Source: Escherichia coli
GTDB taxonomy: Bacteria > Pseudomonadota > Gammaproteobacteria > Enterobacterales > Enterobacteriaceae
Length of the DNA: 64,000 nt
Reading direction: 5' to 3' (one strand)
Assembly (NCBI RefSeq): GCF_009931435.1
Contig: NZ_CP043414.1
This document shows positions 1 to 64,000 of this stretch, piece after piece. The notes under the pieces are model-generated. The model had not been told where the DNA came from and ran no database searches. It saw only the letters and a program-made list of their open reading frames with translations. Position numbers and translations under genes: made by a program. Positions within the stretch are counted from its first letter, which is position 1. Each line of letters opens with the position of its first letter.

Positions 1-2616
1 TAGTTGACCGTTATTACCGTGGTAGTTCCCCTTCACCACCAACACGTTGCCAGCTTGCTGTCCTGACATTCCGGTCATCAGCGTACCGTTGTTGGTCAGA
101 TTGCCACCCAGGGTGTAATTCACTGGTGCAGCCGCTCTTTTTTCAGCGCTATTATTCAGCGCCAGGGTGCCGTTGTTCTCAATGTTTGCGTTACCCATTC
201 CCTGCGCATGACTAACCAGGACATTAGCCGAGCTAGCAATGTTCACATTCGCCGTCAGGTTGCTATTATCGCCCGCTATGTCCAGCGTGCCGCCCTGGAT
301 ATTCAGTTCCCCGTCGCCGCTTAACGAACCGCTTGAAGTCCCCCCGTTGGCAACCGTCAGAGTGCCGCCGTTTAAGTTCAGCAACGAATCGGCGCTAGCC
401 TTGAGCGTACCCACGGTCTGGCTGTGACCATTCATATCCAGTTCAGTCTCTGCCGCCAGACGCAGTTCATGGGTATTACCCAACACGTTATCGTTATTCA
501 ACAAAAGCGTCCCGCTACGCAGATCGGTAACACCGGTATAGTCATTGTCTTTGTTTGAAAGCGATACGGTCTGACCTTTCTGGCTGCTGAAGGCCAGGTC
601 ACCACTGCCGGTAACCTTTGCACTGAGATCGGCGGCATTCTCGCTCTTACCGTTGGCACTCAGCACCAGGGCGTCACTGTCGGTAGCCTGCAAATCAAGC
701 TGGGTCAGGCCGTAACCGATATACAGACCGTCATTGTTTACCCCACTCGTCAGGCGATAATCATAAGTGCCGACGGCCGCTTTTTGCCCATTCTGCTGAA
801 TATCACGCTGTGATCTGCTGGAGAGGATTTGCCCATTTTTATTCTGTAGTTGAAGATTACCCGCATCCCCCAGAACTTCCGCACCCTGTGCATCAACCAG
901 CTTAATGGTGCTGTTACCATCATCGACTTCAGTGAGCGATAACGCAGAGTCAATATCACGAGAAACAGAGCGTACAACGTCACTGTCAGTAACCTGAATC
1001 ACACCCTCGCCGCGCAAATCCAGCGTTTTACTAACGTTGACCGTCCCTTCTGTCATCTGCGCGCCAGCGGCCAGGGCACCAAAATCAACGGTTCCGCCCG
1101 AGAATCCCAGAGTGCTAATGGAGTGAGCGCCCTTACCCACTGTTATCTGGCTTCCCTGACCCGCAGTGATCCCGCCTTTCTGCAGAAACTCAGCATTTTT
1201 TTCCAGGTTAAATGTCGTGTTCTGGAACGCCAGTGAACCCTGGAACCAGTCTGTATAAGCAAACTCATCGAAGGAGAATTCGTGATTCCCCATGTTTATT
1301 TCAACAATGCCTTTACCTTCAAGATCGTTATCAAATACCCAATCTTTGTTGGCATTAATTTGCAGTTTGCCATCAACATCCAGTTCTGCACGGCCGATGT
1401 TCTTATCTTCAGAAATAACAGCGACAGCATCGGAAGCGACATCAATATATCCGCTGAATGCATAGTTATTGCCGGTCAACTCCACCGTCCCACTGTCGAT
1501 ACTTATTGTACCGTTGCCGGAAATCTTATTGGCAAAGGTCATGCTATCGTCAGCCTTCAGGTGTAATTTCCCGCGGTTGGTGATTTCTGCTGTACCTATA
1601 TTTTGGGTGATCCCTAAAGCCCCGTTTTTCTCAATTTTGACTTTACCGCTAAAGGCGGAGTTATCCCCGGTTAAGTAAGTTGTACCATTGAGCGCATTGA
1701 TATAGCCCAGGCCCTCGCTGCCACTGACAATATCCGCGGAAATAGTCGCGTTTTTATCCGTGTGGTTTAAAGTGATTTTCTTATCTGATGTCGAAGCCCA
1801 CACAAACTCAATTTTTTCGGCATCAATAATCCCTGCCGCTTTCGCATCACTCCCTTCCTGGGCACCTAACGCCAACTCAGAGTTGGTGCTTAAACTAATA
1901 GTCGGCGCAGAAACTTTACCGCCTTCTGAAACGGCAAGTGTTGTATCGGAGTTTTGGTTATAATAGCCCAGGCTAATTTGCTTACTGGCATTAACTTCAC
2001 CGCCGTTATTAACTGACAGGTACTGATTACCACCGTAACTGCTGTAAACGCCCATAAAGAAGGTTTCAGAATTTACCTGGCTGCCTTCACCACTGACATT
2101 TCCCTGCAAATAGGTCAGACGACTGGTGCCCTTAACATGGATTTTGCCGCCATTGGAGACGTTAAAATAGCCGCGATCATGCCAGGAGCCGGAGTTTGAG
2201 TCATATAAATCATCTGCATACAACTCACTACCAGCATTGGAGACGTTCAGGAAACCTGTACCTTTCAGCAGGACGTCAAGCTGACCATTGATATACACTT
2301 TCCCTCCGGTGATATCCAATCCACCACCAGAATTGAGCGTAAAGCGTGGACGCGAGGTGTCTGTTACGTTAATAACCAGATTAGCATTATCAGTCACCGT
2401 AATACGGTAATCGATGTTCTGATCGGTTTTGCCGTAATCAACAGTCTTATCCTGGTTCACGATGAAATCACCAGAGAACGCCAGAGATGAATATAAACTT
2501 ATCGCGCTAATTAAAACAGCCCGGGACTTTTTTCCTTTTACTCTGCTCCCCAGCTCCGAGCAGACGCTCCAACAGTTACGGGACCTGTTCCACTTTAGCC
2601 GATATATTTTATTCAT
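1..2616 (-). CDS. AIDA-I/Ag43-type autotransporter adhesin, N-terminal ~872 codons (gene continues past the window start)
   Basis: Manual translation of the minus strand from ATG at 2616..2614 (GGAGA RBS upstream) gives MNKIYRLKWNRSRNCWSVCSELGSRV..., the extended signal peptide typical of type Va autotransporters, followed by a Gly/Asn/Thr-rich repetitive passenger region. No complete ORF is listed by the track because the frame runs off the edge. The hand translation may contain errors. Confidence 0.7.
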   Translation of the reverse strand, partial: MNKIYRLKWNRSRNCWSVCSELGSRVKGKKSRAVLISAISLYSSLAFSGDFIVNQDKTVDYGKTDQNIDYRITVTDNANLVINVTDTSRPRFTLNSGGGLDITGGKVYINGQLDVLLKGTGFLNVSNAGSELYADDLYDSNSGSWHDRGYFNVSNGGKIHVKGTSRLTYLQGNVSGEGSQVNSETFFMGVYSSYGGNQYLSVNNGGEVNASKQISLGYYNQNSDTTLAVSEGGKVSAPTISLSTNSELALGAQEGSDAKAAGIIDAEKIEFVWASTSDKKITLNHTDKNATISADIVSGSEGLGYINALNGTTYLTGDNSAFSGKVKIEKNGALGITQNIGTAEITNRGKLHLKADDSMTFANKISGNGTISIDSGTVELTGNNYAFSGYIDVASDAVAVISEDKNIGRAELDVDGKLQINANKDWVFDNDLEGKGIVEINMGNHEFSFDEFAYTDWFQGSLAFQNTTFNLEKNAEFLQKGGITAGQGSQITVGKGAHSISTLGFSGGTVDFGALAAGAQMTEGTVNVSKTLDLRGEGVIQVTDSDVVRSVSRDIDSALSLTEVDDGNSTIKLVDAQGAEVLGDAGNLQLQNKNGQILSSRSQRDIQQNGQKAAVGTYDYRLTSGVNNDGLYIGYGLTQLDLQATDSDALVLSANGKSENAADLSAKVTGSGDLAFSSQKGQTVSLSNKDNDYTGVTDLRSGTLLLNNDNVLGNTHELRLAAETELDMNGHSQTVGTLKASADSLLNLNGGTLTVANGGTSSGSLSGDGELNIQGGTLDIAGDNSNLTANVNIASSANVLVSHAQGMGNANIENNGTLALNNSAEKRAAAPVNYTLGGNLTNNGTLMTGMSGQQAGNVLVVKGNYHGNNGQL

Positions 2617-3188
2617 CACAATCTCCAGCAATACATCCAAATAAAACTAAGATTGCATAAACAGCAACGCATTAAATGCCATTCCGGTTACTGTTCATCG
2701 CATATAAAAATTCAAAAATTTTGCATAGCATTGACAACCACATATCTGAGTATGTAGTTCAGAGGGTAATAAAATAGCAAGTTACTACTGAAAACTTATT
2801 TTAAGTTAACACTATTAACTTTATCATTACATTCCACCCAGTCTCGAATACATGCGCATTATATGTATCCAGGAACTCAAATCAACTCAAAATATAAACA
2901 AAAGCAGGAGGAATACATTTAATATACAGCCGGTAAAAGTGGTAACTCTTATTAGGTATCAAAATATAAGAATCGTCTTATTAATAAATATATAACTCTA
3001 TAGGACTGAATCCATTCAGCTAATGCAAAATAAAATCGTTAATTAATAAAATATAAAATCATGAAGTGATACAAGAGGAATTGCAGGATATGACATGACA
3101 ATCATATATAATATATGCATAATTTTTTACAGCGAGTCAATGATTTCCGCGCCATATGCAGACATGGCGCGGTTTTATGCAAAAATAA

Positions 3189-5222
3189 TCACACGTCCGG
3201 GAACATTACGCTATTACCCGGCGCTTCACGATGGAGATGGATAAAGTTTAGGTGCCGCTCGTACTGATCGAGAATATCGGTGATCACCTGCTCTTTGCTG
3301 TAGTCCATCAGGTCGTTGCCCTGGCTGCCTTCTAACAGGAAGGTTTCCAGCCGGTAGTAGGTCGATTTACCGCTACGTGCGCGGTAGGTAAAGCCCGGCA
3401 CCGAATATTGCTGCGGCCAAATCTGATAGACAAAGTTTTGCTCTTCGCCCATATGCACCAACAAATCCAGATGCCCCAACTGTTGTCCCTCTTCCGGCGG
3501 CAGGCTTTTTAGCTCCACGTACGCGCCGCGCAACCGCAGCTCCTGCGCCACTTCTTCCATTGCCGGGTAACAGACCGTCTCCATCATCTGTTTAGTGTAA
3601 CGCGTGCCCGGATAATTCATCAGGCGCGAGAGACGTTTTTTCCAGCTCAGGCGATCCTGAAGCCCCAGCGGTCGCGGCGCGGTATCACGGTTGGCACTTT
3701 CACGGCGGTAATCTTCTACCTTCAGAGATTTATACAATCCCGCCATCACGAAGAAAATCACAAAGCTGAACGGCAGCCCCATGATTACCGTGGTGTTTTG
3801 CAGCGCGGATATCCCGTTGGTCATCAGCATGCCAAGCGTCAGCAGACCAATGGCAACCGACCAGAAGACACGCAGCCAGCCCGGCGCGTCGCTGTTGATA
3901 TCTTTAAGCTGCGAGGTGAAATTCCCCAGCACCAGCGCCCCGGAATCCGCCGAAGTTACGTAGAACAGCAAGCCAGTGATGGTGGCAACCGAGGCGCTAA
4001 AGGTAAATGCCGGATATTGCGCCAGCAGGCTGTAGAAGCCGCGCTCCGGATGGACCATCGCTTCCTCGGCAAATGCCGCGCCGCCGTGGATGATTTCATA
4101 CAGCGCGCTATTGCCGAATACCGAGAGCCATAACAGCGTGAAGGTAAACGGAATAATCAACGTGCCCAGCACGAACTGGCGAATGGTACGCCCGCGCGAG
4201 ATACGCGCCAGGAACAGGCCGACAAACGGCGACCATGCCACCCACCATGCCCAGAAGAAGAGCGTCCAGTTATTCATCCACTCAACCGGACGGTCGAAGG
4301 CAAAACTGTTGAGCGTCATTCCCATAAAGCGATTCACATAGTCGCCAACGTTCAGCACCAGCGCATTAAGCAGGAACGAGGTGTCGCCCATAAACAGCAC
4401 GAACAGGATCAACCCCAGCGCCAGCGCAACGTTGAGTTCCGATAACACGCGAATGCCCTTATCGACACCGGAGGTGACAGAGATCGTTGCGATGATCACC
4501 GACAAGGCGATCAGTGCCGCTTTCGCCGCCATCGAATCGGGAATATCAAACAGTACGCTCAAGCCATAGTTAAGCTGCACCACGCCAATACCGAGCGTGG
4601 TCGCAATACCGAAAATGGTGCCGATTACCGCCGCGATATCTACCGTGTGACCAATCGGCCCGTTGATCCGTTTGCCGAAAATAGGATACAGCGCCGAGCG
4701 GATCGTGAGCGGTAAATCATAACGATAGCTAAAGTATCCAAGCGCCATGCCCATCAGCGCATACATCGACCAGCCGGTTAAGCCGTAGTGAAACAGCGTC
4801 CAGACCATCGCCTGACGCGCGGCCTCAATTGTCTGTCCCGCGCCTTCCGGCGGCTGCATATACTGCGTGACCGGCTCAGCAACGGAGAAGAACATCAGAT
4901 CAATACCAATCCCGGCAGCGAACAGCATCGCCGCCCAGCTCAGTAGACTGAATTCCGGTTTGGATTGTTCAGGCCCGAGCTTCACCGAACCAAAACGCGA
5001 ACAAGCGATGCAGACCACAAAGACAATATAGAGCGTTGCCGCCAGCAGATAGTACCAACCGAAGGTTTTAGAAACCCAGTCCAGCGTGCGGCCAATCCAC
5101 AGGGCCGAGAAGTCGCGAAACAGGATCGTTGTCAGGGAAAACAACAAAATCAGTCCGGCGGAGGTGTAAAACACCACCGGATTGATTTTGTCCTTTTCCC
5201 TGCTGTGCGAAAGGTCTGTCAT
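3189..5222 (-). CDS. betT: choline transporter BetT (BCCT family)
   Basis: 677-aa ORF, polytopic membrane protein with BCCT-like sequence; divergent from betIBA as in E. coli. Confidence 0.95.
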   Translation of the reverse strand: MTDLSHSREKDKINPVVFYTSAGLILLFSLTTILFRDFSALWIGRTLDWVSKTFGWYYLLAATLYIVFVVCIACSRFGSVKLGPEQSKPEFSLLSWAAMLFAAGIGIDLMFFSVAEPVTQYMQPPEGAGQTIEAARQAMVWTLFHYGLTGWSMYALMGMALGYFSYRYDLPLTIRSALYPIFGKRINGPIGHTVDIAAVIGTIFGIATTLGIGVVQLNYGLSVLFDIPDSMAAKAALIALSVIIATISVTSGVDKGIRVLSELNVALALGLILFVLFMGDTSFLLNALVLNVGDYVNRFMGMTLNSFAFDRPVEWMNNWTLFFWAWWVAWSPFVGLFLARISRGRTIRQFVLGTLIIPFTFTLLWLSVFGNSALYEIIHGGAAFAEEAMVHPERGFYSLLAQYPAFTFSASVATITGLLFYVTSADSGALVLGNFTSQLKDINSDAPGWLRVFWSVAIGLLTLGMLMTNGISALQNTTVIMGLPFSFVIFFVMAGLYKSLKVEDYRRESANRDTAPRPLGLQDRLSWKKRLSRLMNYPGTRYTKQMMETVCYPAMEEVAQELRLRGAYVELKSLPPEEGQQLGHLDLLVHMGEEQNFVYQIWPQQYSVPGFTYRARSGKSTYYRLETFLLEGSQGNDLMDYSKEQVITDILDQYERHLNFIHLHREAPGNSVMFPDV

Positions 5223-50897: not shown

Positions 50898-51024
50898 ATG
50901 TCTGCACCTGCACTGCCTGATGTCAGAACAGTATTTTGAGAAATTGCCAGGGTTACAATGGCACAAATACGGCACAGGAGGAAAACGTGGTGTAATTGAA
51001 TGTGAGGTAACTTATTGATTTAAA

Positions 51025-51100
51025 TGGTGCCGATAATAGGAGTCGAACCTACGACCTTCGCATTACGAATGCGCTGCTCTACCAACTGAGCTATATCGGC
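51025..51100 (-). tRNA. thrW: tRNA-Thr (anticodon CGU)
   Basis: Reverse complement reads GCCGATATAGCTCAGTTGGTAGAGCAGCGCATTCGTAATGCGAAGGTCGTAGGTTCGACTCCTATTATCGGCACCA, a 76-nt cloverleaf with encoded CCA. Confidence 0.95.
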
Positions 51101-51214
51101 CCTGAAAGGACATGTTCACGAGCGTGAATCACGGTGGACAAGGTTAAAACTAACCGGGCGATGCGTCAATGGCCTTGTGAATCAAATGGCTACTTTTGCA
51201 TCACCCGGTTTTAT

Positions 51215-52468
51215 TTATGCACGAATGGTGTAATCACCAATGCCGATCCACTTGTAGGTGGTCAGAGCTTCCAGCCCCATTGGGCCGCGCGCGTGGAGTT
51301 TTTGTGTGCTTACCGCAACTTCCGCACCCAGACCAAACTGGCCGCCGTCGGTAAACCGCGTAGAGGCGTTAACGTAAACAGCGGAGGAATCCACTTCGTT
51401 GACAAAACGCTGGGCATTACGCATATCGCGGGTCAGGATCGCATCGGAGTGTTGCGTACCGTGTTCACGAATATGGGCGATGGCATCGTCAAGATCGCTG
51501 ACGATTTTGACGTTCAAGTCTAATGACAGGAACTCATCGTCATACTCTTCGGCTTTAACAGCCACCACCTTCGCGGGGCCTGCCTGCAACTGCGCCAGCG
51601 CAGTTGCGTCAGCGTGTAATGTCACGCCGCTTTCCGCCATTTGCTTGCTTAATGCGGGCAGGAAGCTATCTGCGATGTTTTTATTTACCAGCAACGTTTC
51701 TACCGTATTACACGTGCTCGGGCGCTGAGTTTTCGCGTTGACAATCACTTTCAATGCTTCAGCGATCTCTGCACTTTCATCAACGTAAATATGGCATACG
51801 CCTATACCACCTGTGATTACCGGAATCGTCGACTGCTCGCGGCACAGTTTATGCAACCCAGCCCCGCCGCGTGGGATCAGCATGTCGATGTATTTATCCA
51901 TACGCAGCAGTTCACTGACCAGCGCACGGTCAGGATTATCAATCGCCTGCACGGCACCCGCCGGTAAACCGCAGGATTTCAGGGCGTCCTGAATCACCGC
52001 CACCGTTGCAGCGTTAGTGCGACAGGTTTCTTTGCCGCCACGCAGAATCACTGCATTACCGGTTTTCAGGCACAGCGAAGCGACATCAACCGTCACGTTC
52101 GGGCGCGCTTCATAAATCACGCCAATCACCCCCAGCGGCACGCGACGGCGTTCCAGGCGCAGGCCACTGTCCAGCACGCCACCATCAATCACCTGCCCCA
52201 CCGGATCGGCGAGGTTACACACCTGGCGCACATCATCGGCAATGCTTTTCAGCCGTGCGGGCGTCAGTGCCAGGCGGTCAAGCATCGCTTCGCTAAGGCC
52301 ATTGGCACGCGCGTCAGCAACATCCTGGGCGTTAGCATTGAGGATGCTTTCGCTTTGTGCTTCCAGTTCATCGGCGATTTTTTCCAGCACGCGATTTTTT
52401 TCGCGACTGGAGAGTTGCGCTAAATTATACGAGGCTTGCTTCGCGGCAATGCCCATTTGTTCCAGCAT
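51215..52468 (-). CDS. proA: gamma-glutamyl phosphate reductase
   Basis: 417-aa ORF; proBA operon. Confidence 0.96.
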
Positions 52469-52478
52469 CGGCTGCTCC

Positions 52479-53582
52479 TTAACGGGTAATCATATCATCA
52501 CGGTGAACGGCAACCGGGCCGTATTCATATCCCAGTATTGCATCAATTTCTTGCGAGTGGTGTCCGGCAATACGGCGTAATGCATCGCTGTTGTAACGAC
52601 TGACGCCGTGGGCGATATCGCGACCTTCGAGGTTGCAAATGCGAATGACTTCACCACGCGAGAAGTTGCCGGTTACGCTTTTAATGCCTTTCGGCAACAG
52701 GGAGCTGCCGCGTTCAAGAATGGCGGCGGTTGCCCCTTCATCTACCGTGATTTCACCCGCAGGTGGCGCACCGAAAATCCAACGTTTGCGGTTTTCAAGC
52801 GGAGTCGCCTGGGCATGGAACAGCGTACCGACGGAAATACCTTCCATCACATCACCAATGACACCCGGCTTACTGCCCGCGGCAATAATGGTGTCGATAC
52901 CCGCACGGCAAGCCACGTCAGCGGCCTGCAATTTAGTGCTCATGCCGCCGGTTCCAAGACCTGAAACGCTGTCACCGGCAATCGCGCGCAGTGCGTCATC
53001 AATGCCGTACACATCTTTAATCAGTTCTGCCTGCGGATTGCTACGCGGGTCAGCGGTATACAAACCTTTTTGATCGGTCAGCAACAACAGTTTATCGGCA
53101 CCTGCCAGAATCGCCGCCAGCGCCGAAAGGTTATCGTTATCGCCGACTTTAATCTCTGCAGTAGCGACAGCATCGTTCTCATTAATTACCGGGACAATGT
53201 TGTTATCGAGCAGCGCACGAAGGGTATCCCGCGCGTTAAGGAAGCGTTCACGGTCTTCCATATCAGCACGAGTTAGCAGCATCTGCCCGACGTGAATGCC
53301 ATAAATCGAAAACAGCTGTTCCCACAGTTGAATCAGTCGACTCTGCCCTACCGCCGCCAGAAGTTGTTTCGAGGCGATAGTCGCTGGCAGTTCCGGGTAA
53401 CCCAGGTGCTCACGTCCGGCGGCAATCGCCCCCGACGTCACAATTACAATCCGATGCCCGGCGGCATGTAGCTGCGCGCACTGGCGAACAAGTTCAACGA
53501 TATGGGCACGGTTCAGGCGGCGCGATCCGCCTGTTAGCACACTGGTGCCGAGTTTTACCACCAGCGTCTGGCTGTCACTCAT
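52479..53582 (-). CDS. proB: glutamate 5-kinase
   Basis: Track ORF 52479..53669; start at [19 protein letters not shown] gives 367 aa. Confidence 0.96.
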
Positions 53583-53770
53583 GATTCTCTGCCATTCAAT
53601 TTTAGGGAAAATGATATCAAACGAACGTTTTAGCAGGACTGTCGCCGGTTGCCAACCATCTGCAAGCAAAGCATGGCGTTTTGTTGCGCGGGATCAGCAA
53701 GCGTAGCGGCAGTTGTTTACGCTTTTATTACAGATTTAATAAATTACCACATTTTAAGAATATCATTAAT

Positions 53771-53788
53771 CTGTAATATATCTTTAAC
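53771..53788 (+). promoter_or_regulatory. Pho box of the phoE promoter
   Basis: CTGTAATATATCTTTAAC matches the PhoB-box pattern about 80-100 bp upstream of the phoE start. Confidence 0.5.
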
Positions 53789-53869
53789 AATCTCAGGTTA
53801 AAAACTTTCCTGTTTTCAACGGGGCTCTCCCGCTGAATATTCGCGCGTTAATTAAAATCAGGAATGAAA

Positions 53870-54925
53870 ATGAAAAAGAGCACTCTGGCATTAGTGGTGA
53901 TGGGCATTGTGGCATCGGCATCCGTACAGGCCGCAGAAATATATAACAAAGACGGTAATAAACTGGATATCTATGGCAAAGTTAAAGCCATGCATTATAT
54001 GAGCGATAATGACAGTAAAGATGGCGACCAAAGTTATATCCGTTTTGGTTTTAAAGGCGAAACACAAATTAACGATCAACTGACCGGTTATGGTCGCTGG
54101 GAAGCAGAGTTTGCCGGAAATAAAGCAGAGAGTGATACTGCTCAGCAAAAAACGCGTCTTGCCTTTGCCGGGTTGAAATATAAAGATTTGGGTTCTTTCG
54201 ACTATGGTCGTAACCTGGGGGCGCTGTATGACGTGGAAGCATGGACCGATATGTTCCCGGAATTCGGCGGCGATTCCTCCGCGCAGACAGACAACTTTAT
54301 GACCAAACGCGCCAGCAGTCTGGCAACGTATCGGAACACCGACTTCTTCGGCGTTATCGATGGTCTGAACTTAACCCTGCAATATCAAGGAAAAAACGAA
54401 AACCGCGACGTTAAAAAGCAAAACGGTGATGGCTTCGGCACGTCATTGACATATGACTTTGGCGGCAGCGATTTTGCCATTAGTGGGGCCTATACCAACT
54501 CCGATCGCACCAACGAGCAGAACCTGCAAAGCCGTGGCACGGGCAAGCGTGCAGAAGCATGGGCAACAGGCCTGAAATACGATGCCAATAATATTTACCT
54601 GGCAACTTTCTATTCTGAAACGCGTAAAATGACGCCAATCTCTGGTGGTTTTGCCAATAAGACGCAGAACTTTGAAGCAGTCGCTCAATACCAATTCGAC
54701 TTTGGCCTGCGTCCATCGCTGGGTTATGTCTTATCGAAAGGGAAAGATATTGAGGGCATCGGTGATGAGGATCTGGTCAATTATATTGATGTCGGTGCTA
54801 CATATTATTTCAACAAAAATATGTCGGCCTTTGTTGATTATAAAATCAACCAACTGGACAGCGATAACAAATTAAATATTAATAATGATGATATTGTCGC
54901 GGTTGGGATGACCTATCAGTTTTAA
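53870..54925 (+). CDS. phoE: phosphate-starvation-inducible porin PhoE
   Basis: Start at [21 protein letters not shown]; C-terminal ...VAVGMTYQF. Confidence 0.95.
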
Positions 54926-54932
54926 TGGAGAT

Positions 54933-54955
54933 TGCCGGATGCGGCGCATCCGGCA
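54933..54955. repeat. REP-like palindromic unit
   Basis: TGCCGGATGCGGCGCATCCGGCA between convergent phoE and crl. Confidence 0.45.
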
Positions 54956-54963
54956 CTTTTCAC

Positions 54964-55422
<459 letters not shown>

Positions 55423-56667
55423 TTAACACAATCGTTTTTCGATCCAGCTCGTGATTTCCTGAAGACCTTTGTCAAAATTCCGATACACCGGATTAAATGG
55501 AATCTCTAACAATTTACCATCAGCAGATGATGAGGTGATTAAGCGTGAGTCCTCTTCCGGGCTGAACGGATCGTTCTTCCAGTAGCCTGATAACATTGGC
55601 GTCGGGCAGCGACGGCCCAGCAATCCTTGCACTTTTAATGAATAACGATTCAGTTCCACACGCAACGCTTCATCGGAAGCATCATGCATCCCCAAACGAC
55701 TCGCCAGAACGTCAAGATACATTTCCGGCACCTGTTGCTGGCACTTAAAATCACTCAACAGGGTATGAACTACCGGACCAAGACAAGCAACCGCTTTCAG
55801 ACGCGGCGATTCAAGATATGCCAGACGCACAGCAACGTTAGCGCCAAAACGGAAACCAAAGGCCGCGACACGGGTGTGATCCACCCACGGGACGTTAGGC
55901 AGCGCCTTTAAGACGTGCTGATGCAACAGGCTGGAGTCCTGGGTGAGCTTCCATTTTGAAGAAAAGCCCACCGACGGCATATCAATAGTCAGCATCGCAA
56001 TGCCGCGCGGGGCAAAATAACGTTCATACAGACTGTAATAATCCGTCTGCATCGCATCCAGACCACCACACATTAATACCGTCGGGAACGGGCCATCGCC
56101 TTTCGGCATATGCAAAAAGCCGGTGATGGGCGCACCGCCTGGTACGGTAAACTCCATCTGCCGCATCGTGCCCGGCAGACGTTGGGCGGCCTCTTCATAG
56201 GCACGGTTTGACAAAGCCTGCGCTTGCTCGGCCAGGTCATCCCCTTTCAGATGAGGATAGGCGGCAATGTTGTACAACGTGGCCGCATGCAGCCAGTGAC
56301 GACCACTGAGTTGTGGATCTTCTTCCGCACAAGCTTTTTGTTGCCACACCATCGCCTGGGTGGCCCATTCATAAATCCAGTTGCCGCCGCGGTAGCCAAT
56401 CACCGTATCGTATAAATCATCGTCGGTACGTTCAGCATCGCTCATCACAATACGCGCCTGAACGTCGAGGATTTCACGTGGGTCAATGCCGCGCCAGATC
56501 CACATCAGACGGTTTATCATGCGATACCAGTGGGGGATGGTTTTACCATCAAGGGCCGACTGCACAGGCGGTTGTGCGCCGTGATTAAAGCGGCGGACTA
56601 GCGTCGAGGTTTCAGGATGTTTAAAGCGGGGTTTGAACAGGGTTTCGCTCAGGTTTGCCTGTGTCAT
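55423..56667 (-). CDS. frsA: esterase FrsA
   Basis: 414-aa ORF. Confidence 0.93.
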
Positions 56668-56758
56668 GGATGCAGCCTCCAGAATACTTACTGGAAACTA
56701 TTGTAACCTGCCTGAAGTTAAAAAGAACAACGCCCGGCAGTGCCAGGCGTTGAAAAGA

Positions 56759-57217
56759 TTAGCGACCGGAGATTGGCGGGACGAATACGACGCCCATATC
56801 CCACGGCTGTTCAATCCAGGTATCTTGTGGGATATCAACAACATAATCATCAACCAGCGGACGACCTGCCGGTTTAGCGAAGATGGTGACAAAGTGCGCT
56901 TTTGGATACATTTCACGAATCGCAACCGCAGTACCGCCGGTATCCACCAGATCATCAATAACGATGAAGCCTTCGCCATCGCCTTCTGCGCGTTTCAGCA
57001 CTTTAAGCTCGCGCTGGTTGTCGTGATCGTAGCTGGAAATACAAACGGTATCGACATGACGAATACCCAGTTCACGCGCCAGTAACGCACCCGGTACCAG
57101 ACCGCCACGGCTTACGGCAATAATGCCTTTCCATTGTTCAGAAGGCATCAGTCGGCTTGCGAGTTTACGTGCATGGATCTGCAACATGTCCCAGGTGACG
57201 ATGTATTTTTCGCTCAT
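56759..57217 (-). CDS. gpt: xanthine-guanine phosphoribosyltransferase
   Basis: 152-aa ORF. Confidence 0.96.
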
Positions 57218-57477
57218 GTGAAGTGTCCCAGCCTGTTTATCTACGGCTTAAAAAGTGTTCGAGGGGAAAATAGGTTGCGCGAGATTATAGAGATCTGACG
57301 CACTAAAAACCAGTATTTCACATGAGTCCGCGTCTTTTTACGCACAGCCTCTCCCTGACGCGGGATAAAGTGGTATTCTCAAACATATCTCGCAAGCCTG
57401 TCTTGTGTTGACAACATTTTCTGCTAACCCTGTGACCTGCAATACTGTTTTGCGGGTGATCGACAAGGAGACTTAAC

Positions 57478-58935
57478 GTGTCTGAACTGTCTCAATTATC
57501 TCCACAGCCGCTGTGGGATATTTTTGCCAAAATCTGTTCTATTCCTCACCCGTCCTATCATGAAGAGCAACTCGCTGAATACATTGTTGGTTGGGCAAAA
57601 GAGAAAGGTTTCCATGTCGAACGCGATCAGGTGGGTAATATCCTGATTCGTAAACCTGCTACCGCAGGTATGGAAAATCGTAAACCGGTCGTCTTACAGG
57701 CCCACCTCGATATGGTGCCGCAGAAAAATAACGACACCGTGCATGACTTCACTAAAGATCCTATCCAGCCTTATATTGATGGCGAATGGGTTAAAGCGCG
57801 CGGTACCACGCTGGGCGCGGATAACGGCATTGGTATGGCCTCTGCACTGGCGGTTCTGGCTGACGAAAACGTGGTTCACGGCCCGCTGGAAGTGCTGCTA
57901 ACCATGACCGAAGAAGCCGGTATGGACGGGGCGTTCGGCTTACAGAGCAACTGGTTGCAGGCTGATATTCTGATTAACACCGACTCCGAAGAAGAAGGTG
58001 AAATCTACATGGGTTGTGCTGGGGGTATCGACTTCACCTCCAACCTGCATTTAGATCGTGAAGCCGTTCCGGCTGGTTTTGAAACCTTCAAATTAACCTT
58101 AAAAGGTCTGAAAGGCGGTCACTCCGGCGGTGAAATCCACGTTGGCCTGGGTAACGCGAACAAACTGCTGGTGCGCTTCCTGGCGGGACATGCAGAAGAA
58201 CTGGACCTGCGTCTTATTGATTTCAACGGCGGCACACTGCGTAACGCCATCCCGCGTGAAGCCTTTGCGACCATCGCTGTCGCAGCTGATAAAGTCGACG
58301 CACTGAAAACGCTGGTGAATACCTATCAGGACATCCTGAAAAACGAGCTGGCAGAGAAAGAGAAAAATCTGGCCTTGTTGCTGGACTCTGTTGCGAACGA
58401 TAAAGCTGCCCTGATTGCGAAATCTCGCGATACCTTTATTCGTCTGCTGAACGCCACCCCGAACGGTGTGATCCGCAACTCCGACGTGGCAAAAGGTGTG
58501 GTTGAAACCTCCCTGAACGTCGGTGTCGTGACCATGACCGACAACAACGTAGAAATTCACTGTCTGATCCGTTCTCTGATCGACAGCGGTAAAGACTACG
58601 TGGTGAGCATGCTGGATTCGCTGGGTAAACTGGCTGGCGCGAAAACCGAAGCGAAAGGCGCATATCCTGGCTGGCAGCCGGACGCTAATTCTCCGGTGAT
58701 GCATCTGGTACGTGAAACCTATCAGCGCCTGTTCAACAAGACGCCGAACATCCAGATTATTCACGCGGGCCTGGAATGTGGTCTGTTCAAAAAACCGTAT
58801 CCGGAAATGGACATGGTTTCTATCGGGCCAACCATCACCGGTCCGCACTCTCCGGATGAGCAGGTTCACATCGAAAGCGTAGGCCATTACTGGACACTGC
58901 TGACTGAACTGCTGAAAGAAATTCCGGCGAAGTAA
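57478..58935 (+). CDS. pepD: cytosol nonspecific dipeptidase PepD
   Basis: 485-aa M20-family peptidase ORF. Confidence 0.96.
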   Translation: MSELSQLSPQPLWDIFAKICSIPHPSYHEEQLAEYIVGWAKEKGFHVERDQVGNILIRKPATAGMENRKPVVLQAHLDMVPQKNNDTVHDFTKDPIQPYIDGEWVKARGTTLGADNGIGMASALAVLADENVVHGPLEVLLTMTEEAGMDGAFGLQSNWLQADILINTDSEEEGEIYMGCAGGIDFTSNLHLDREAVPAGFETFKLTLKGLKGGHSGGEIHVGLGNANKLLVRFLAGHAEELDLRLIDFNGGTLRNAIPREAFATIAVAADKVDALKTLVNTYQDILKNELAEKEKNLALLLDSVANDKAALIAKSRDTFIRLLNATPNGVIRNSDVAKGVVETSLNVGVVTMTDNNVEIHCLIRSLIDSGKDYVVSMLDSLGKLAGAKTEAKGAYPGWQPDANSPVMHLVRETYQRLFNKTPNIQIIHAGLECGLFKKPYPEMDMVSIGPTITGPHSPDEQVHIESVGHYWTLLTELLKEIPAK

Positions 58936-58991
58936 TTTTTTGATTTGCTGCCGGATGGCGTTTGATCGTCTTCCGGCAGTTTCATCCTTTC

Positions 58992-59606
58992 TTATCCTTC
59001 GATAAAAGCCATCCCTGTAAACGTCCGTCGCGGGTTGCCACGTTCAATCTGGTGATGGAACATTCGCCGCTGCGATTTCAGCGCCGCGCTATTTTCCTGT
59101 TGCTGTTGCTCCAGCTTCCAGGCAATCAGCAATCGCGCCAGCCGTTTGTTGGCATGTTGGCTGCGCTCTGACTGAACCTTCACGCTAATCCCGGATGCCA
59201 GATGCGTGGCGCGTACCGCCGAGTCGGTTTTATTGACATGTTGACCGCCCGGCCCCGACGAACGCAGCGTCTCATAACGGATTGCATCCGATTGTTCCTG
59301 CTCATCAGCGGTAAAACGCCCAATGCCCAGAAACCAGTTTTTGCGCCCATGATGAGGCCGATACGGGCTTGGGCAAATCCACTGAATAGTGCCGCACCAA
59401 CTTTCGCTTAATGCCCATGCGTTATCGCCATCCAGAGAAATCAGCGCCGAACGCAGCGTGTCAGAGTAGCGGCCCGTTTCTGTTTCCAGCACCGTTACCG
59501 CGACGTCTTGTCGGGTAGCTTCTTTAATCAACCTGTCCAGCGCCTTTTTCACTGCGAGACAACATTCTTCCGGTCCCTGAGCTGAGGAGAGTTGCAGCAA
59601 GATCAT
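58992..59606 (-). CDS. prfH: peptide-chain release factor homolog PrfH (intact)
   Basis: 204 aa from [15 protein letters not shown]; contains GGQ motif ([12 protein letters not shown]); ATGA overlap with the rtcB2 stop. Confidence 0.9.
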
Positions 59607-60754
59607 CCTTTTTTCCCTCCACTGTTTTTGAGCGTCAGCACCGGACGCAGTCGCGCGGCAGGAATAATTAAACCGGCCTGCACCAGACATTGCACCACAC
59701 TTTCAGCCGATTTATAGGCTTGTGGCGCTTCTTCAAAGATGAGTTGTTTATCGCGACAAATTACCCGACCGCCAAGTTCAGTACGTGAGAGTTGCGTCGC
59801 CGTGTATTTCGCTGCCAGACGCCCTTTACACTCGGTGCGCCCCCATTTACGCCCTGCCCCATGCGCCAGTGAGTGAAGCGTTTTTTCGTTCGCAACAGGT
59901 TTAACCAGCCAGGAGTAATCACCGCGTGAACCGGGAATAATCACCAGACCGTTGTCATCCGGCGTAGCCCCTTTACGGTGTAACCATCCTTGTTGATCGC
60001 CGATTCGACATGCGCTAACAAAGTTATGCGCCACATCCAGAACCGAATTTCCGTTGGCCTTAACTTGTTGCATTATGCGCAAAGCGATCAGCTGGCGATT
60101 AATACGCGCAAACGCCAGCGCATCATCATGTTCCGCAATATAACTTAGCGCGTCGTCACTGCCTTCCGGCAAACCATGATGCGAAAACGAGGCAATATGC
60201 CGCTGTAAAATAGACTGCCCTAAACCACGCGAGCCGCTATGGACCAGCAGTTGCAGATGCTGCGCATCCAGACCTGACAGTGCAAACAGTTCCGCATCGA
60301 TGATTTGATCAATCTGTTGCAGTTCTGCAAAGTGGTTACCGCCACCGATAGAGCCAAGCGCGCAGCGCCACGGATGCTGTGCAAACGCTGACGGCAGGTT
60401 TTCCTCCAGCCAGCTTTCTTCAGCAACGTCATCCAGCGCAGATAATCGCTTTTCAAACTTATCGGCGTTGTATTTACGCGCGAGAATATCTGTTTGCCAT
60501 AGCGCCATACCGCAGCCGATATCATTGCCGACCAGTGCCGGGTAAAAACGGCCTACGGAGAAGAACGCTGCGCCAATCGGATAGCCGCGTCCTGGGTGTA
60601 AATCTGGCATCCCTACGACGCGTTGCATGTCGGGTAAATTTGCCGTGGTGTGTAATTGTTGGATCGCTGAACTCTCGATCCACAGGTCATCAGATGCGAT
60701 GGTAAATACCGCATCGGATAAGGGACGAATATATTTGCCCATGTACCATTCCAT
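59603..60754 (-). CDS. rtcB: RtcB-family RNA ligase (RtcB2, intact)
   Basis: 383-aa ORF; position where K-12 has the ykfJ pseudogene. Confidence 0.88.
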
Positions 60755-61059
60755 TTATACTCGTCATACTTCAAGTTGCATGTACTGCGACTGCGTTCGT
60801 TCACCCCAGTCACTTACTTTAGTAAGCTCCTGGGGATTCACTCGCTTGTCGCCTTCCTGCAACTCGAATTATTTAGAGTATATAAATATAAAAATCAGGA
60901 AATGGCAGACGAATCCAGGGCAAGAAAAAAAGAATTAATCCTGGAAAGGTCTGCAAAGAGTCATTGATAAAGGATTTTTCATGATTTACCTCCTTGCAGT
61001 TTGTGGAATAAGAAAACGCGCACATATTAGGCGGGCGTTATTTTCATTGCAAGCTGGAT

Positions 61060-61512
61060 TTAGTGTTGCGGTTTATATCGCATATGAAAATTAGTAAACC
61101 ACGCTCCCCGGCATTCAACGCGCTGCTGCTTAACTGTCTGAAAACCATAACGTTCAAAAAAGGGTTTTGCGGTTATGCTGGCATCTACCGTAAGTTCGGA
61201 TTCAGACTTAATCAAAGGTTTTAACAAAGCGCTGGCAACCCCGCAGCGGTTGTATTTCGGATCAACAAATAACATATCGATATAATGCTCAATGCAGGTA
61301 ATAAAGCCGACCAGTTGTGTATTAATCACCGCAACCCGCACTTGTGATTTCGCGAGTTTCTCTTTCCATCGATGTTCATCAATCTGCGCCCAGGCGGCAA
61401 TTTGTTGTGGTGAATAATGCTGACTGGCGGTCATCGTAACCGCTCTAATAAAAATAGCGCATAGCTGCTGAAAATCGCCAGGCTGATAGTCTCTTATTTG
61501 TATATTATTCAT
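61060..61512 (-). CDS. yafP: GNAT-family N-acetyltransferase YafP
   Basis: 150-aa ORF immediately after dinB with a 4-nt gap/overlap. Confidence 0.85.
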
Positions 61513-62564
61513 AATCCCAGCACCAGTTGTCTTTCCATTTGCGGATCAAGCAACGTCACATGCAGCCCCACCAGTCGCACACCGCGTCCGCCCCGGCGTT
61601 CATCCCAGGTTTTACGCGCAGTGGCGATCAAGTCAGCTTTATTCAGCCGCGGCCAGACGTGTTCCTGGGTGGTTTGCTGAAAATCGTCGAACTTTAATTT
61701 CACCCCCTGGCGGGCAATCAGTAAATCAGGTTTTACCTTTGCCAGACGACGCTCCAGTTCAGGGTAAAGCCGCTCGATGATCGCTTCACATTCAGACCAG
61801 TGATGAATATCTTCCGCCATGGTGCGTTCTACACCGACGGATTTTCGCAACCTTTCGCTGTTAACGTCGCGCTCGTCAATCCCCTGACTACGCTCCCACA
61901 AAATGCGACCAAATTTGCCAAAGCGTTTAAGCAACGTCACCAGATCACACTTTTGTACATCGCCGCAGGTCCGCAGCCCCATCGCTTCCAGTTTTGCCGC
62001 CGAGACTTTGCCGACACCGGGAATTTTTGCCAGCGGTAAGGTTTGCAGAAATGCCGGGACGTCCGCCGGCGTAATCACAAACTGTCCGTTGGGTTTATTC
62101 ATATCAGAGGCGATTTTGGCGAGAAACTTGACCGGCGCAACGCCCGCAGACGCCGTCAGTTGCAGCTCGTTGAAGATCGTCTGGCGGATTTCCTGAGCGA
62201 TAAGGGTCGCAGAGCCGTGGCAATGTACGCTGTCGGTGACGTCGAGATAGGCTTCATCCAGTGACAGCGGCTCAATACGCGATGTGTAGCGAGAGAAGAT
62301 TTCGCGGATATGATTTGACGCTTCTTTGTAGGCGTCAAAGCGCCCTGGAAGCAAGGTGAGATGCGGACACAGTTTGAGCGCCATGCCGGTTGGCATTGCG
62401 CTACGCACGCCAAATTTACGCGCGGGATAATTGGCGGTGCTGATCACCCCCCGGCGTTCGCGGCTGCCGCCAATAGCAATAGGGATATCGCGCAGGGCGG
62501 GATTGTCGCGCATCTCCACCGCGGCGAAAAAGCAGTCCATATCCACATGAATGATTTTACGCAT
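61509..62564 (-). CDS. dinB: DNA polymerase IV
   Basis: 351-aa ORF beginning [26 protein letters not shown]. Confidence 0.97.
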
Positions 62565-62578
62565 TGCTCACCTCTCAA

Positions 62579-62598
62579 CACTGGTAAAGTATACAGTG
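62579..62598. promoter_or_regulatory. LexA (SOS) box of dinB
   Basis: CACTGGTAAAGTATACAGTG contains CTG-N10-CAG, 15-34 bp upstream of the dinB start. Confidence 0.7.
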
Positions 62599-62634
62599 AT
62601 TTCAGAGTTTGAGAAATGCGTAAAGATTCAGCAT

Positions 62635-63400
62635 TTAACGCGTTCGCTGCGAAAGCACCTGCTGCTTATCCAGCTTTTTCACCAGCGGCTGCACCACCTT
62701 ATCCCCATGCTGACCAAAATATTGATACAACGTATCAGACGCGCTTTTGGTGAGCACCATAATCTCAATGCGCCGGTTACCCGCACTTTGCGGATTTTTC
62801 GTGTCCAGCAGCATCTGGTCCGCCATTGCGCTCACCTGCATCACTTTATCTTCCGGCATCCCGGCCTCTTCCAGCACCCGACGAGCCGAGAGCGCACGAT
62901 CGCCCGAAAGGTTCCAGTTGTTGTAGATATTGCTTTTATAGGCCATCGCATCGGTATGCCCGGTAATAATAATTTTGTTATCGAGCGAGTCGAATACCGG
63001 CGCGAGCTCCACCAGCAGAGTTTTAAAGAACGGCATAATCTTCGCGCTGCCGCGTTCAAACATATTGCGGTTCTGGTCATCTTTAATCAGCACGCGTAAT
63101 CCCTGCGGGACAATCTCCATCTCCAGATTGGCTTCCATATGCGCATCGCGGGCGATGGTGTTGATACTGGTCGCCAGCTCGCCAAGCTCAGTGGCGGACT
63201 TCTTCTTCAGTAGCGCCGTTTTCTCGTTGACGTCGCGGGCTTTTTTCTCCGTCTCTTCCGGCACCGCCACGGTGGCAGGTTTCAGCGGATGCGTCGGGCT
63301 GATTTTATTTAACGGCGATAGCCCGCCGCCATTGAAAATCGACTGCCCGTGCAGCGCGGCGATAATGCTTTCACGCTCGGATTTACTGACGCTGTTGACA
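62635..63400 (-). pseudogene. lafU: lafU fragment (MotB-like, OmpA-type C-terminal domain; N-terminus deleted)
   Basis: Track ORF 62635..63552; the MotB/OmpA-like C-terminal domain is recognisable (IIITGHTDAMAYKS ... NRRIEIMVLTK), while the N-terminal extension is antisense to the lfhA fragment and lacks the TM anchor. Confidence 0.65.
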
Positions 63401-64000
63401 ATCAACTTTATTGTCGTCACCAAAGGGGCTGAGCGTATTTCCGAGGTTTCTGCCCGCTTTACCCTGGACGCGATGCCCGGCAAGCAAATGGCGATTGACG
63501 CCGATCTTAACGCCGGGTTGATCAACCAGGCGCAGGCGCAGACCCGCCGCAAAGATGTTGCCAGCGAGGCCGATTTCTACGGCGCGATGGACGGGGCATC
63601 GAAGTTTGTGCGCGGGGATGCCATCGCCGGGATGATGATTCTGGCGATCAACCTGATTGGCGGCGTTTGTATCGGGATCTTCAAATACAACCTGAGCGCC
63701 GATGCCGCCTTCCAGCAATATGTGCTGATGACCATCGGCGACGGCCTGGTGGCGCAGATCCCGTCCCTGCTGCTTTCCACCGCGGCGGCGATTATCGTCA
63801 CCCGCGTCAGCGACAACGGCGATATTGCCCATGACGTGCGCCACCAGTTGCTGGCAAGCCCGTCGGTGCTCTACACCGCCACCGGGATTATGTTCGTGCT
63901 GGCGGTGGTGCCGGGAATGCCGCACTTCCCGTTCCTGATGTTCAGCGCCCTGCTTGGTTTTACCGGCTGGCGAATGAGCAAACGCCCGCAGGCGGCGGAG
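63401..64000 (+). pseudogene. lfhA: lfhA fragment (FlhA-like export gate, internal portion; runs off window end)
   Basis: Plus-strand frame translates to INFIVVTKGAERISEVSARFTLDAMPGKQMAIDADLNAGLI..., matching FlhA from about residue 130 onward; no N-terminus. Confidence 0.65.

Follow-up and report, generated by a model that had tools for sequence, protein, structure and literature searches.

The window, by which we mean the whole 64-kb stretch of Escherichia coli DNA that was analysed, carries an intact dinB gene followed on the same strand by an intact yafP gene, with a LexA (SOS) box upstream of dinB. The features of the locus, and the evidence from which each was read, are as follows.

61060..61512, minus strand: yafP, encoding a GNAT-family N-acetyltransferase of 150 aa, intact (open reading frame listing, NCBIfam, Pfam).
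61509..61515, minus strand: the junction 7-mer ATTATGA, which includes the ATGA overlap of the two genes (direct reading and a junction comparison of 25 loci).
61509..62564, minus strand: dinB, encoding DNA polymerase IV of 351 aa, intact (open reading frame listing, NCBIfam, Pfam).
62579..62598, minus strand: the predicted LexA (SOS) box of the dinB promoter, CACTGTATACTTTACCAGTG (pattern search and identity to K-12).
62588..62615, minus strand: a sigma-70-like promoter (consensus match only, 9/12).

Both products were identified by profile and by comparison with K-12 reference proteins, which were taken from a RefSeq K-12-type locus and from MG1655. The dinB product matches the NCBIfam model NF002677 (DNA polymerase IV) at 546.7 bits against a cutoff of 256, and has the Pfam domains IMS, IMS_HHH and IMS_C. 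It shares 99.4% amino acid identity with K-12 DinB, from which it differs only by E168D and M210T, and D8, F13, D103, E104 and the C-terminal QLVLGL are all as in K-12; we take these conserved residues to comprise the catalytic carboxylates, the steric-gate residue and the C-terminal beta-clamp motif (QLVLGL). The yafP product is matched over residues 1–150 by the equivalog NF007338 (YafP-type GNAT; 317 bits against a cutoff of 146), has the Pfam domain Acetyltransf_10, and is 91.3% identical to K-12 YafP at the amino acid level, with 13 substitutions.

Read directly on the minus strand, the dinB stop codon TGA (61511..61509) and the yafP start codon ATG (61512..61510) share the four nucleotides ATGA. 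The junction runs ...CTGGGATTATGAATAAT..., the dinB/yafP junction stretch being ...CTGGTGCTGGGATTATGAATAATATACAA..., and GGATTATGAATAA at 61518..61506 (minus strand) contains the overlap, with nothing between the genes. The original prediction had described the stop and start as adjacent; they in fact overlap by 4 nt, although its corollary, that the junction has no room for a toxin–antitoxin (TA) pair, stands. An identical −4 overlap was present in 11/11 two-gene loci extracted for comparison. The sole Shine-Dalgarno-like sequence for yafP is a weak GGTG about 8 nt upstream, a terminator scan found no clear terminator 3′ of yafP, and an Rfam scan of window positions 58900–64000 found no RNA family.

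Upstream of dinB, the 70-bp lafU–dinB intergenic region is identical to K-12 at 69/70 positions, and the sole difference lies 8 nt upstream of the LexA box, outside it. The box itself (core CTG-N10-CAG at 62596..62581, minus strand) has the same sequence as the K-12 box, which bears out the earlier description of it as intact. The promoter-like site consists of a −35 element TTCTCA (62615..62610), a 16-nt spacer and a −10 element TATACT (62593..62588), with the −10 inside the LexA box. A search with the 20-mer LexA consensus TACTGTATATAAAAACAGTA, allowing up to 3 mismatches, gave no match, because the dinB box departs from that consensus. The looser pattern CTGT-N8-ACAG, allowing 1 mismatch, gave 22 matches in the window, the dinB box among them, against ~18 expected by chance; the pattern is thus common by chance, and the predicted box rests on its position and its identity to K-12 rather than on statistics.

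[quoted passage not shown] Searches of the whole 64-kb window agree with this: tblastn with K-12 YafN and YafO gave a best E value of 1.4, and blastn with K-12 yafNO DNA gave only chance matches of 20 nt or less. Neither a YafN antitoxin gene (PhdYeFM_antitox, PF02604) nor a YafO toxin gene (YafO_toxin, PF13957) was found within the 64-kb window. Alignment of the junction with that of K-12, which had been proposed as a check, shows that the extra K-12 DNA is exactly 759 bp, bounded by a 7-bp direct repeat, ATTATGA. This insert holds a 51-nt spacer, yafN (PhdYeFM antitoxin), yafO (YafO_toxin) and 9 nt before yafP; its left boundary falls between ...GGGATTATGA and TGTATAC..., and its right boundary between ...TTTATATTATGA and ATAAC.... 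In the two-gene form, ATTATGA occurs once at the junction (window 61515..61509). In the junction comparison (25 loci; 11 two-gene, 12 four-gene and 2 with yafN only), dinB ends in ATTATGA in 12/12 four-gene and 2/2 yafN-only loci, and ATTATGA stands directly 5′ of yafP in 13/14 of these same loci, with GF43 having CATTATGA there.

The two-gene arrangement is not peculiar to the source genome, and is one of two roughly equally common E. coli alleles. An 80-bp junction probe was contiguous (at least 80% coverage of the 80 bp) in 2,530/5,426 complete E. coli genomes (46.6%), and K-12 yafNO DNA was present in 2,847/5,426 (52.5%), with identity never below 95%. Of the 5,426 genomes, 5,414 were matched by a 600-bp query with the junction at its centre. 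In a spread sample of these, roughly half of the matches were one 600-bp piece and half were two pieces spanning 1,359 bp, and in the two-piece matches yafN and yafO are annotated in the gap. Since the junction and yafNO counts together make up nearly the whole collection, genomes that do not have yafNO at dinB are generally without yafNO altogether. For this reason, a copy of yafNO elsewhere in the source genome is unlikely, the more so because matches to yafNO among plasmids prove to be F′ plasmids or mislabelled chromosomes. Plasmid mobility of yafNO thus found no support: the 14 PLSDB matches were either F′ plasmids with the proAB–lac–dinB region of K-12 or records that were mislabelled or of chromosome size. 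One PLSDB record of 134 kb (CP044308.1), listed as an E. coli plasmid from chicken meat, holds a yafNO-like sequence at 119467..120193 with 80.6% identity to K-12, the sole clearly divergent copy seen.

Neither the two-gene arrangement nor its interpretation is new. Gutierrez, Elez, Clermont, Denamur and Matic found that in 40% of sequenced strains the operon consists of two genes overlapping at ATGA, and that 50% of ECOR strains are without yafNO (Gutierrez et al., 2011; NAR 39:4192, PMC3105422). They chose CFT073 for their work on yafP, which they studied there as an SOS gene, because of its two-gene operon. In the model they put forward, the four-gene form, which E. fergusonii carries, came first, and recombination between two ATGA sequences removed yafNO on at least three occasions (Gutierrez et al., 2011). 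A later review calls dinB–yafP an "undisturbed bicistronic operon" in strains without yafNO, and regards yafNO as having inserted between the two cistrons (Fraikin et al., 2020; PMC7167474). A 2023 survey found YafO to be less prevalent in phylogroups C, B1 and G and in ST131 and ST73.

Although the arrangement is common, the sequence that carries it here is not. The dinB, yafP, lafU and rtcB genes of the window have ~93–94% nucleotide identity to their counterparts in over 99% of the complete E. coli genomes; the closest of these genomes reach 97–98%, and none reaches 99% or more over the 5.1-kb region 58900..64000. Between the window and K-12, dinB has dS = 0.33 and dN = 0.0025. Judged by these identities, the window allele is one of a rare and deeply divergent group, and its close relatives are all two-gene. 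The adjoining 19 kb is 97–99% identical to typical E. coli. A sharply bounded introgressed dinB block was considered and rejected, as sliding identity to K-12 is ~94% over 61500–64000 yet just ~96% over 51000–59500; by this measure the dinB locus is more divergent than its surroundings, with a moderate contrast against K-12, and is not a clean block.

What the ancestral form of the operon was can be approached through outgroups. A scan of genome contigs for YafP by exact peptide patterns returned 5 loci and missed E. fergusonii, E. albertii and E. ruysiae, and further outgroups were reached by a YafP protein search and contig look-ups, of which the Yokenella look-up (P0037) found nothing. Within Escherichia, Escherichia sp. 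MOD1-EC7003 has the two-gene form, and four genes are present in E. whittamii and in the divergent "E. coli" SCPM-O-B-8794. E. marmotae has no yafNO, and its dinB and yafP share the 4 nt ATGA (GGGTTATGAATAAC). Beyond the genus, dinB of Citrobacter amalonaticus ends in TAA and is followed after 5 nt by the probable yafP ATG, and Kluyvera sichuanensis has a 2-nt gap between dinB and yafP, in both cases without yafNO. The E. marmotae, C. amalonaticus and K. sichuanensis loci all lie in a conserved neighbourhood by pepD–gpt–frsA. From this handful of outgroup genomes, the two-gene dinB–yafP operon is probably ancestral in Enterobacteriaceae, and direct adjacency of the two genes would then be older than the genus Escherichia, with yafNO a later insertion. 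Ancestral adjacency as read from these sequences is compatible with later losses of yafNO, yet losses would no longer be the sole explanation of the two-gene alleles.

The cassette itself appears to have a shorter history than the genes around it. Between K-12 and E. whittamii, dS is 0.29 for dinB, 0.17 for yafP, 0.088 for yafN and 0.037 for yafO, placing the cassette 3–8 times below its flanks in this E. coli to E. whittamii comparison, on few substitutions. Across 11 four-gene loci, mean pairwise nucleotide identity is 95.6% for dinB, 95.3% for yafP, 97.3% for yafN and 98.4% for yafO. Small as these counts are, they point to a cassette that coalesces later than its flanks, as it would if spread by recombination. 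Site-specific transfer of the cassette only is not demonstrated, as the tract of low divergence between K-12 and E. whittamii does not match the cassette bounds exactly: it begins near the 3′ end of yafN and stops where yafP starts.

Changes between the two forms appear to be recurrent. In neighbour-joining trees of dinB, of yafP and of both together, two- and four-gene alleles are interspersed. Diversity of dinB and yafP across E. coli is high (~4.5% mean pairwise), and their SNPs are strongly clustered, which points to a mosaic structure. Some pairs of opposite form are almost the same on both sides of the junction: two-gene LR-31 and four-gene O157:H7 have 1 difference in the last 240 bp of dinB and 0 in the first 281 bp of yafP, and two-gene Ecol_AZ161 does not differ from four-gene SF-088 anywhere in the last 363 bp of dinB or the first 216 bp of yafP. 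In another pair, two-gene O157:H16 Res13 and four-gene ZF34, the change of haplotype falls exactly at the junction, a pattern suggestive of allelic replacement through recombination.

Degenerate forms of the operon were also seen. A third form, dinB–yafN–yafP with an orphan antitoxin, is present in Escherichia sp. E1V33 (3676..4000 of extracted locus L005) and in E. coli GF43 (2814..3138 of L028); in both genomes a deletion at a TTAT microhomology, with the same junction, has left just the first 8 codons of yafO. In three further genomes yafN is intact and yafO is a pseudogene, through a frameshift in SBF22, an internal stop in ST3 and a premature stop at codon 119 in SCPM-O-B-8794. The toxin appears to decay before the antitoxin.

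The locus is, very probably, a natural two-gene allele of the SOS-regulated dinB operon and one of its two common forms in E. coli. By origin, the 759-bp yafNO cassette would have been inserted at the ATGA junction within Escherichia, leaving the ATTATGA repeat, and the window allele either would never have received it, or would have lost it precisely between the repeats or by allelic replacement. The repeat is compatible with both directions of change, being the trace expected of an insertion with a short target duplication and also a substrate for precise excision by slippage.

An even chance may be given to the first of these histories, in which the allele stands in unbroken descent from an ancestral enterobacterial dinB–yafP bicistron and never had yafNO. 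The direct adjacency in the outgroups favours it, as do the low dS of the cassette, younger by this measure than its flanks, and the 7-bp duplication, which is what insertion into ATTATGA would leave. E. marmotae, moreover, has the very ATGA overlap that is found in all two-gene alleles of E. coli, even highly divergent ones (dinB dS of 0.33 between the window and K-12). However, such descent and a precise loss would produce the same sequence, the mosaic recombination in dinB and yafP uncouples the history of the allele from that of the lineage, and the four-gene state is found in both E. fergusonii and E. whittamii.

On a wider reading, to which we lend about as much credence as doubt, the scenario of an ancestral four-gene operon with at least three deletions has the matter backwards. 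The bicistron would be ancestral and would have been kept in about half of E. coli, the window allele included. The yafNO genes would be a young 759-bp cassette that entered by one insertion with duplication of ATTATGA, spread by homologous recombination through conserved flanks among E. coli lineages and other Escherichia, and has since been decaying toxin-first. That yafNO is an insertion was already stated in the 2020 review (PMC7167474); beyond that, the novelty would be confined to the repeat, the outgroups and the contrast in dS. Gutierrez et al., 2011 mention ATGA alone, whereas the ATTATGA 7-mer was read here (PMC3105422). The 7-bp repeat, the outgroups, the lower dS of the cassette and the variants with toxin-first decay are small additions, which refine a known evolutionary story.

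Secondary loss, the model of Gutierrez et al., 2011, is a serious candidate that falls somewhat short of an even chance. It supposes a four-gene Escherichia ancestor. Short direct repeats (ATGA according to the paper, ATTATGA as read here) would have allowed recombination or slippage to remove the 759-bp cassette from the present lineage, so fusing dinB to yafP. Four genes in E. fergusonii (PMC3105422) and E. whittamii are as it predicts, and the interspersion of two- and four-gene alleles on the tree of the flanks fits it. So does the (near-)identity of LR-31 with O157:H7 and of Ecol_AZ161 with SF-088 over more than 200 bp on each side, as for a precise event in situ. Microhomology deletion is known at the locus from the removal of yafO alone at TTAT in E1V33 and GF43, and SBF22, ST3 and SCPM-O-B-8794 have yafO as a pseudogene. 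Against this, the two-gene operons of E. marmotae, Citrobacter and Kluyvera argue that four genes were not the deep ancestral state, and a cassette dS 3–8 times below that of the flanks fits later spread better than vertical inheritance from the ancestor of the genus. The clade of the window allele (the window, 2013C-4282 and 24A16CRGN010) is, furthermore, deeply divergent and uniformly two-gene, and no scar separates loss from primary absence. An assembly or sequencing artefact, in which a collapse or mis-join removed yafNO, is scarcely credible, as the junction is in frame for both genes and is identical both to that of 2,530 independently assembled complete genomes and to the PCR-sequenced junctions of ECOR strains (PMC3105422).

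A mechanism can be proposed from what is established about the dinB operon in K-12 and about gene pairs that overlap at ATGA. For the two-gene allele of the window, LexA would repress a single dinB–yafP transcript, and upon DNA damage RecA-stimulated cleavage of LexA would de-repress it. Ribosomes terminating at the dinB TGA would then re-initiate at the overlapping yafP ATG (translational coupling), so that Pol IV and the YafP acetyltransferase would be induced together, with neither the ribosome-dependent mRNA interferase YafO nor its antitoxin YafN produced alongside them. We infer co-transcription and SOS induction of the pair from the overlap, from there being no intervening promoter or terminator, and from what has been published on K-12 and CFT073. 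That yafP would be induced along with dinB, free of YafO, may be regarded as a sound deduction, and the same situation has been studied in CFT073 (PMC3105422).

The nearest known system is the two-gene operon of CFT073 and UTI89 (PMC3105422, PMC7167474), which shares with the window the gene pair, the ATGA overlap, a LexA-controlled promoter region and the absence of yafNO. The allele alone differs, and with DinB at 99.4% identity to that of K-12, the proteins presumably function as they do elsewhere. The four-gene operon of K-12 (McKenzie et al., 2003; Singletary et al., 2009, both as cited in PMC3105422) is alike in its dinB promoter and LexA box (69/70) and in its first and last genes; it differs in having the 759-bp insert after the dinB stop, so that yafP follows yafO, whereas in the window yafP would be translationally coupled to dinB. 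A parallel discussed in the 2020 review is the relA–mazG bicistron, with or without mazEF (PMC7167474). This is likewise a stress or housekeeping operon that exists in two forms in E. coli, one with and one without a type II TA system at its intercistronic junction; the locus and the TA family are different.

The source strain would accordingly be counted, by inference, among the ~47% of E. coli in which SOS induces Pol IV and YafP without YafNO. This bears on any extension of K-12 results on SOS-linked toxin activity or persistence to further strains, and beyond correct annotation it otherwise matters little. The locus also provides a clear case in nature of a TA cassette that has entered or left a junction of overlapping stop and start codons, and of a toxin that decays before its antitoxin.

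Several observations concern the neighbouring genes. On the 3′ side of yafP, window positions 58992..60754 (minus strand) hold an intact gene for an rtcB-family RNA ligase (~59603..60742; NF007153 at 636 bits, TIGR03073) overlapping an intact prfH (~58992..59606; TIGR03072, 328 bits). K-12 has pseudogene remnants alone of both genes; the RtcB–PrfH pair is known to be variable. On the other side, window positions 62635..64000 hold the deletion scar of Flag-2 (lateral flagella), in which lafU (62635..63420, minus strand) overlaps a 5′-truncated flhA-like remnant (from ~63386, plus strand), a structure that is as annotated in K-12 and other E. coli. E. marmotae keeps motA/motB-like and sigma-factor genes upstream of dinB. 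Lastly, in E. coli 2013C-4282, among the nearest relatives of the window allele, dinB is annotated as frameshifted (1,055 bp; 1748..2802 of extracted locus L002) and yafP is intact.
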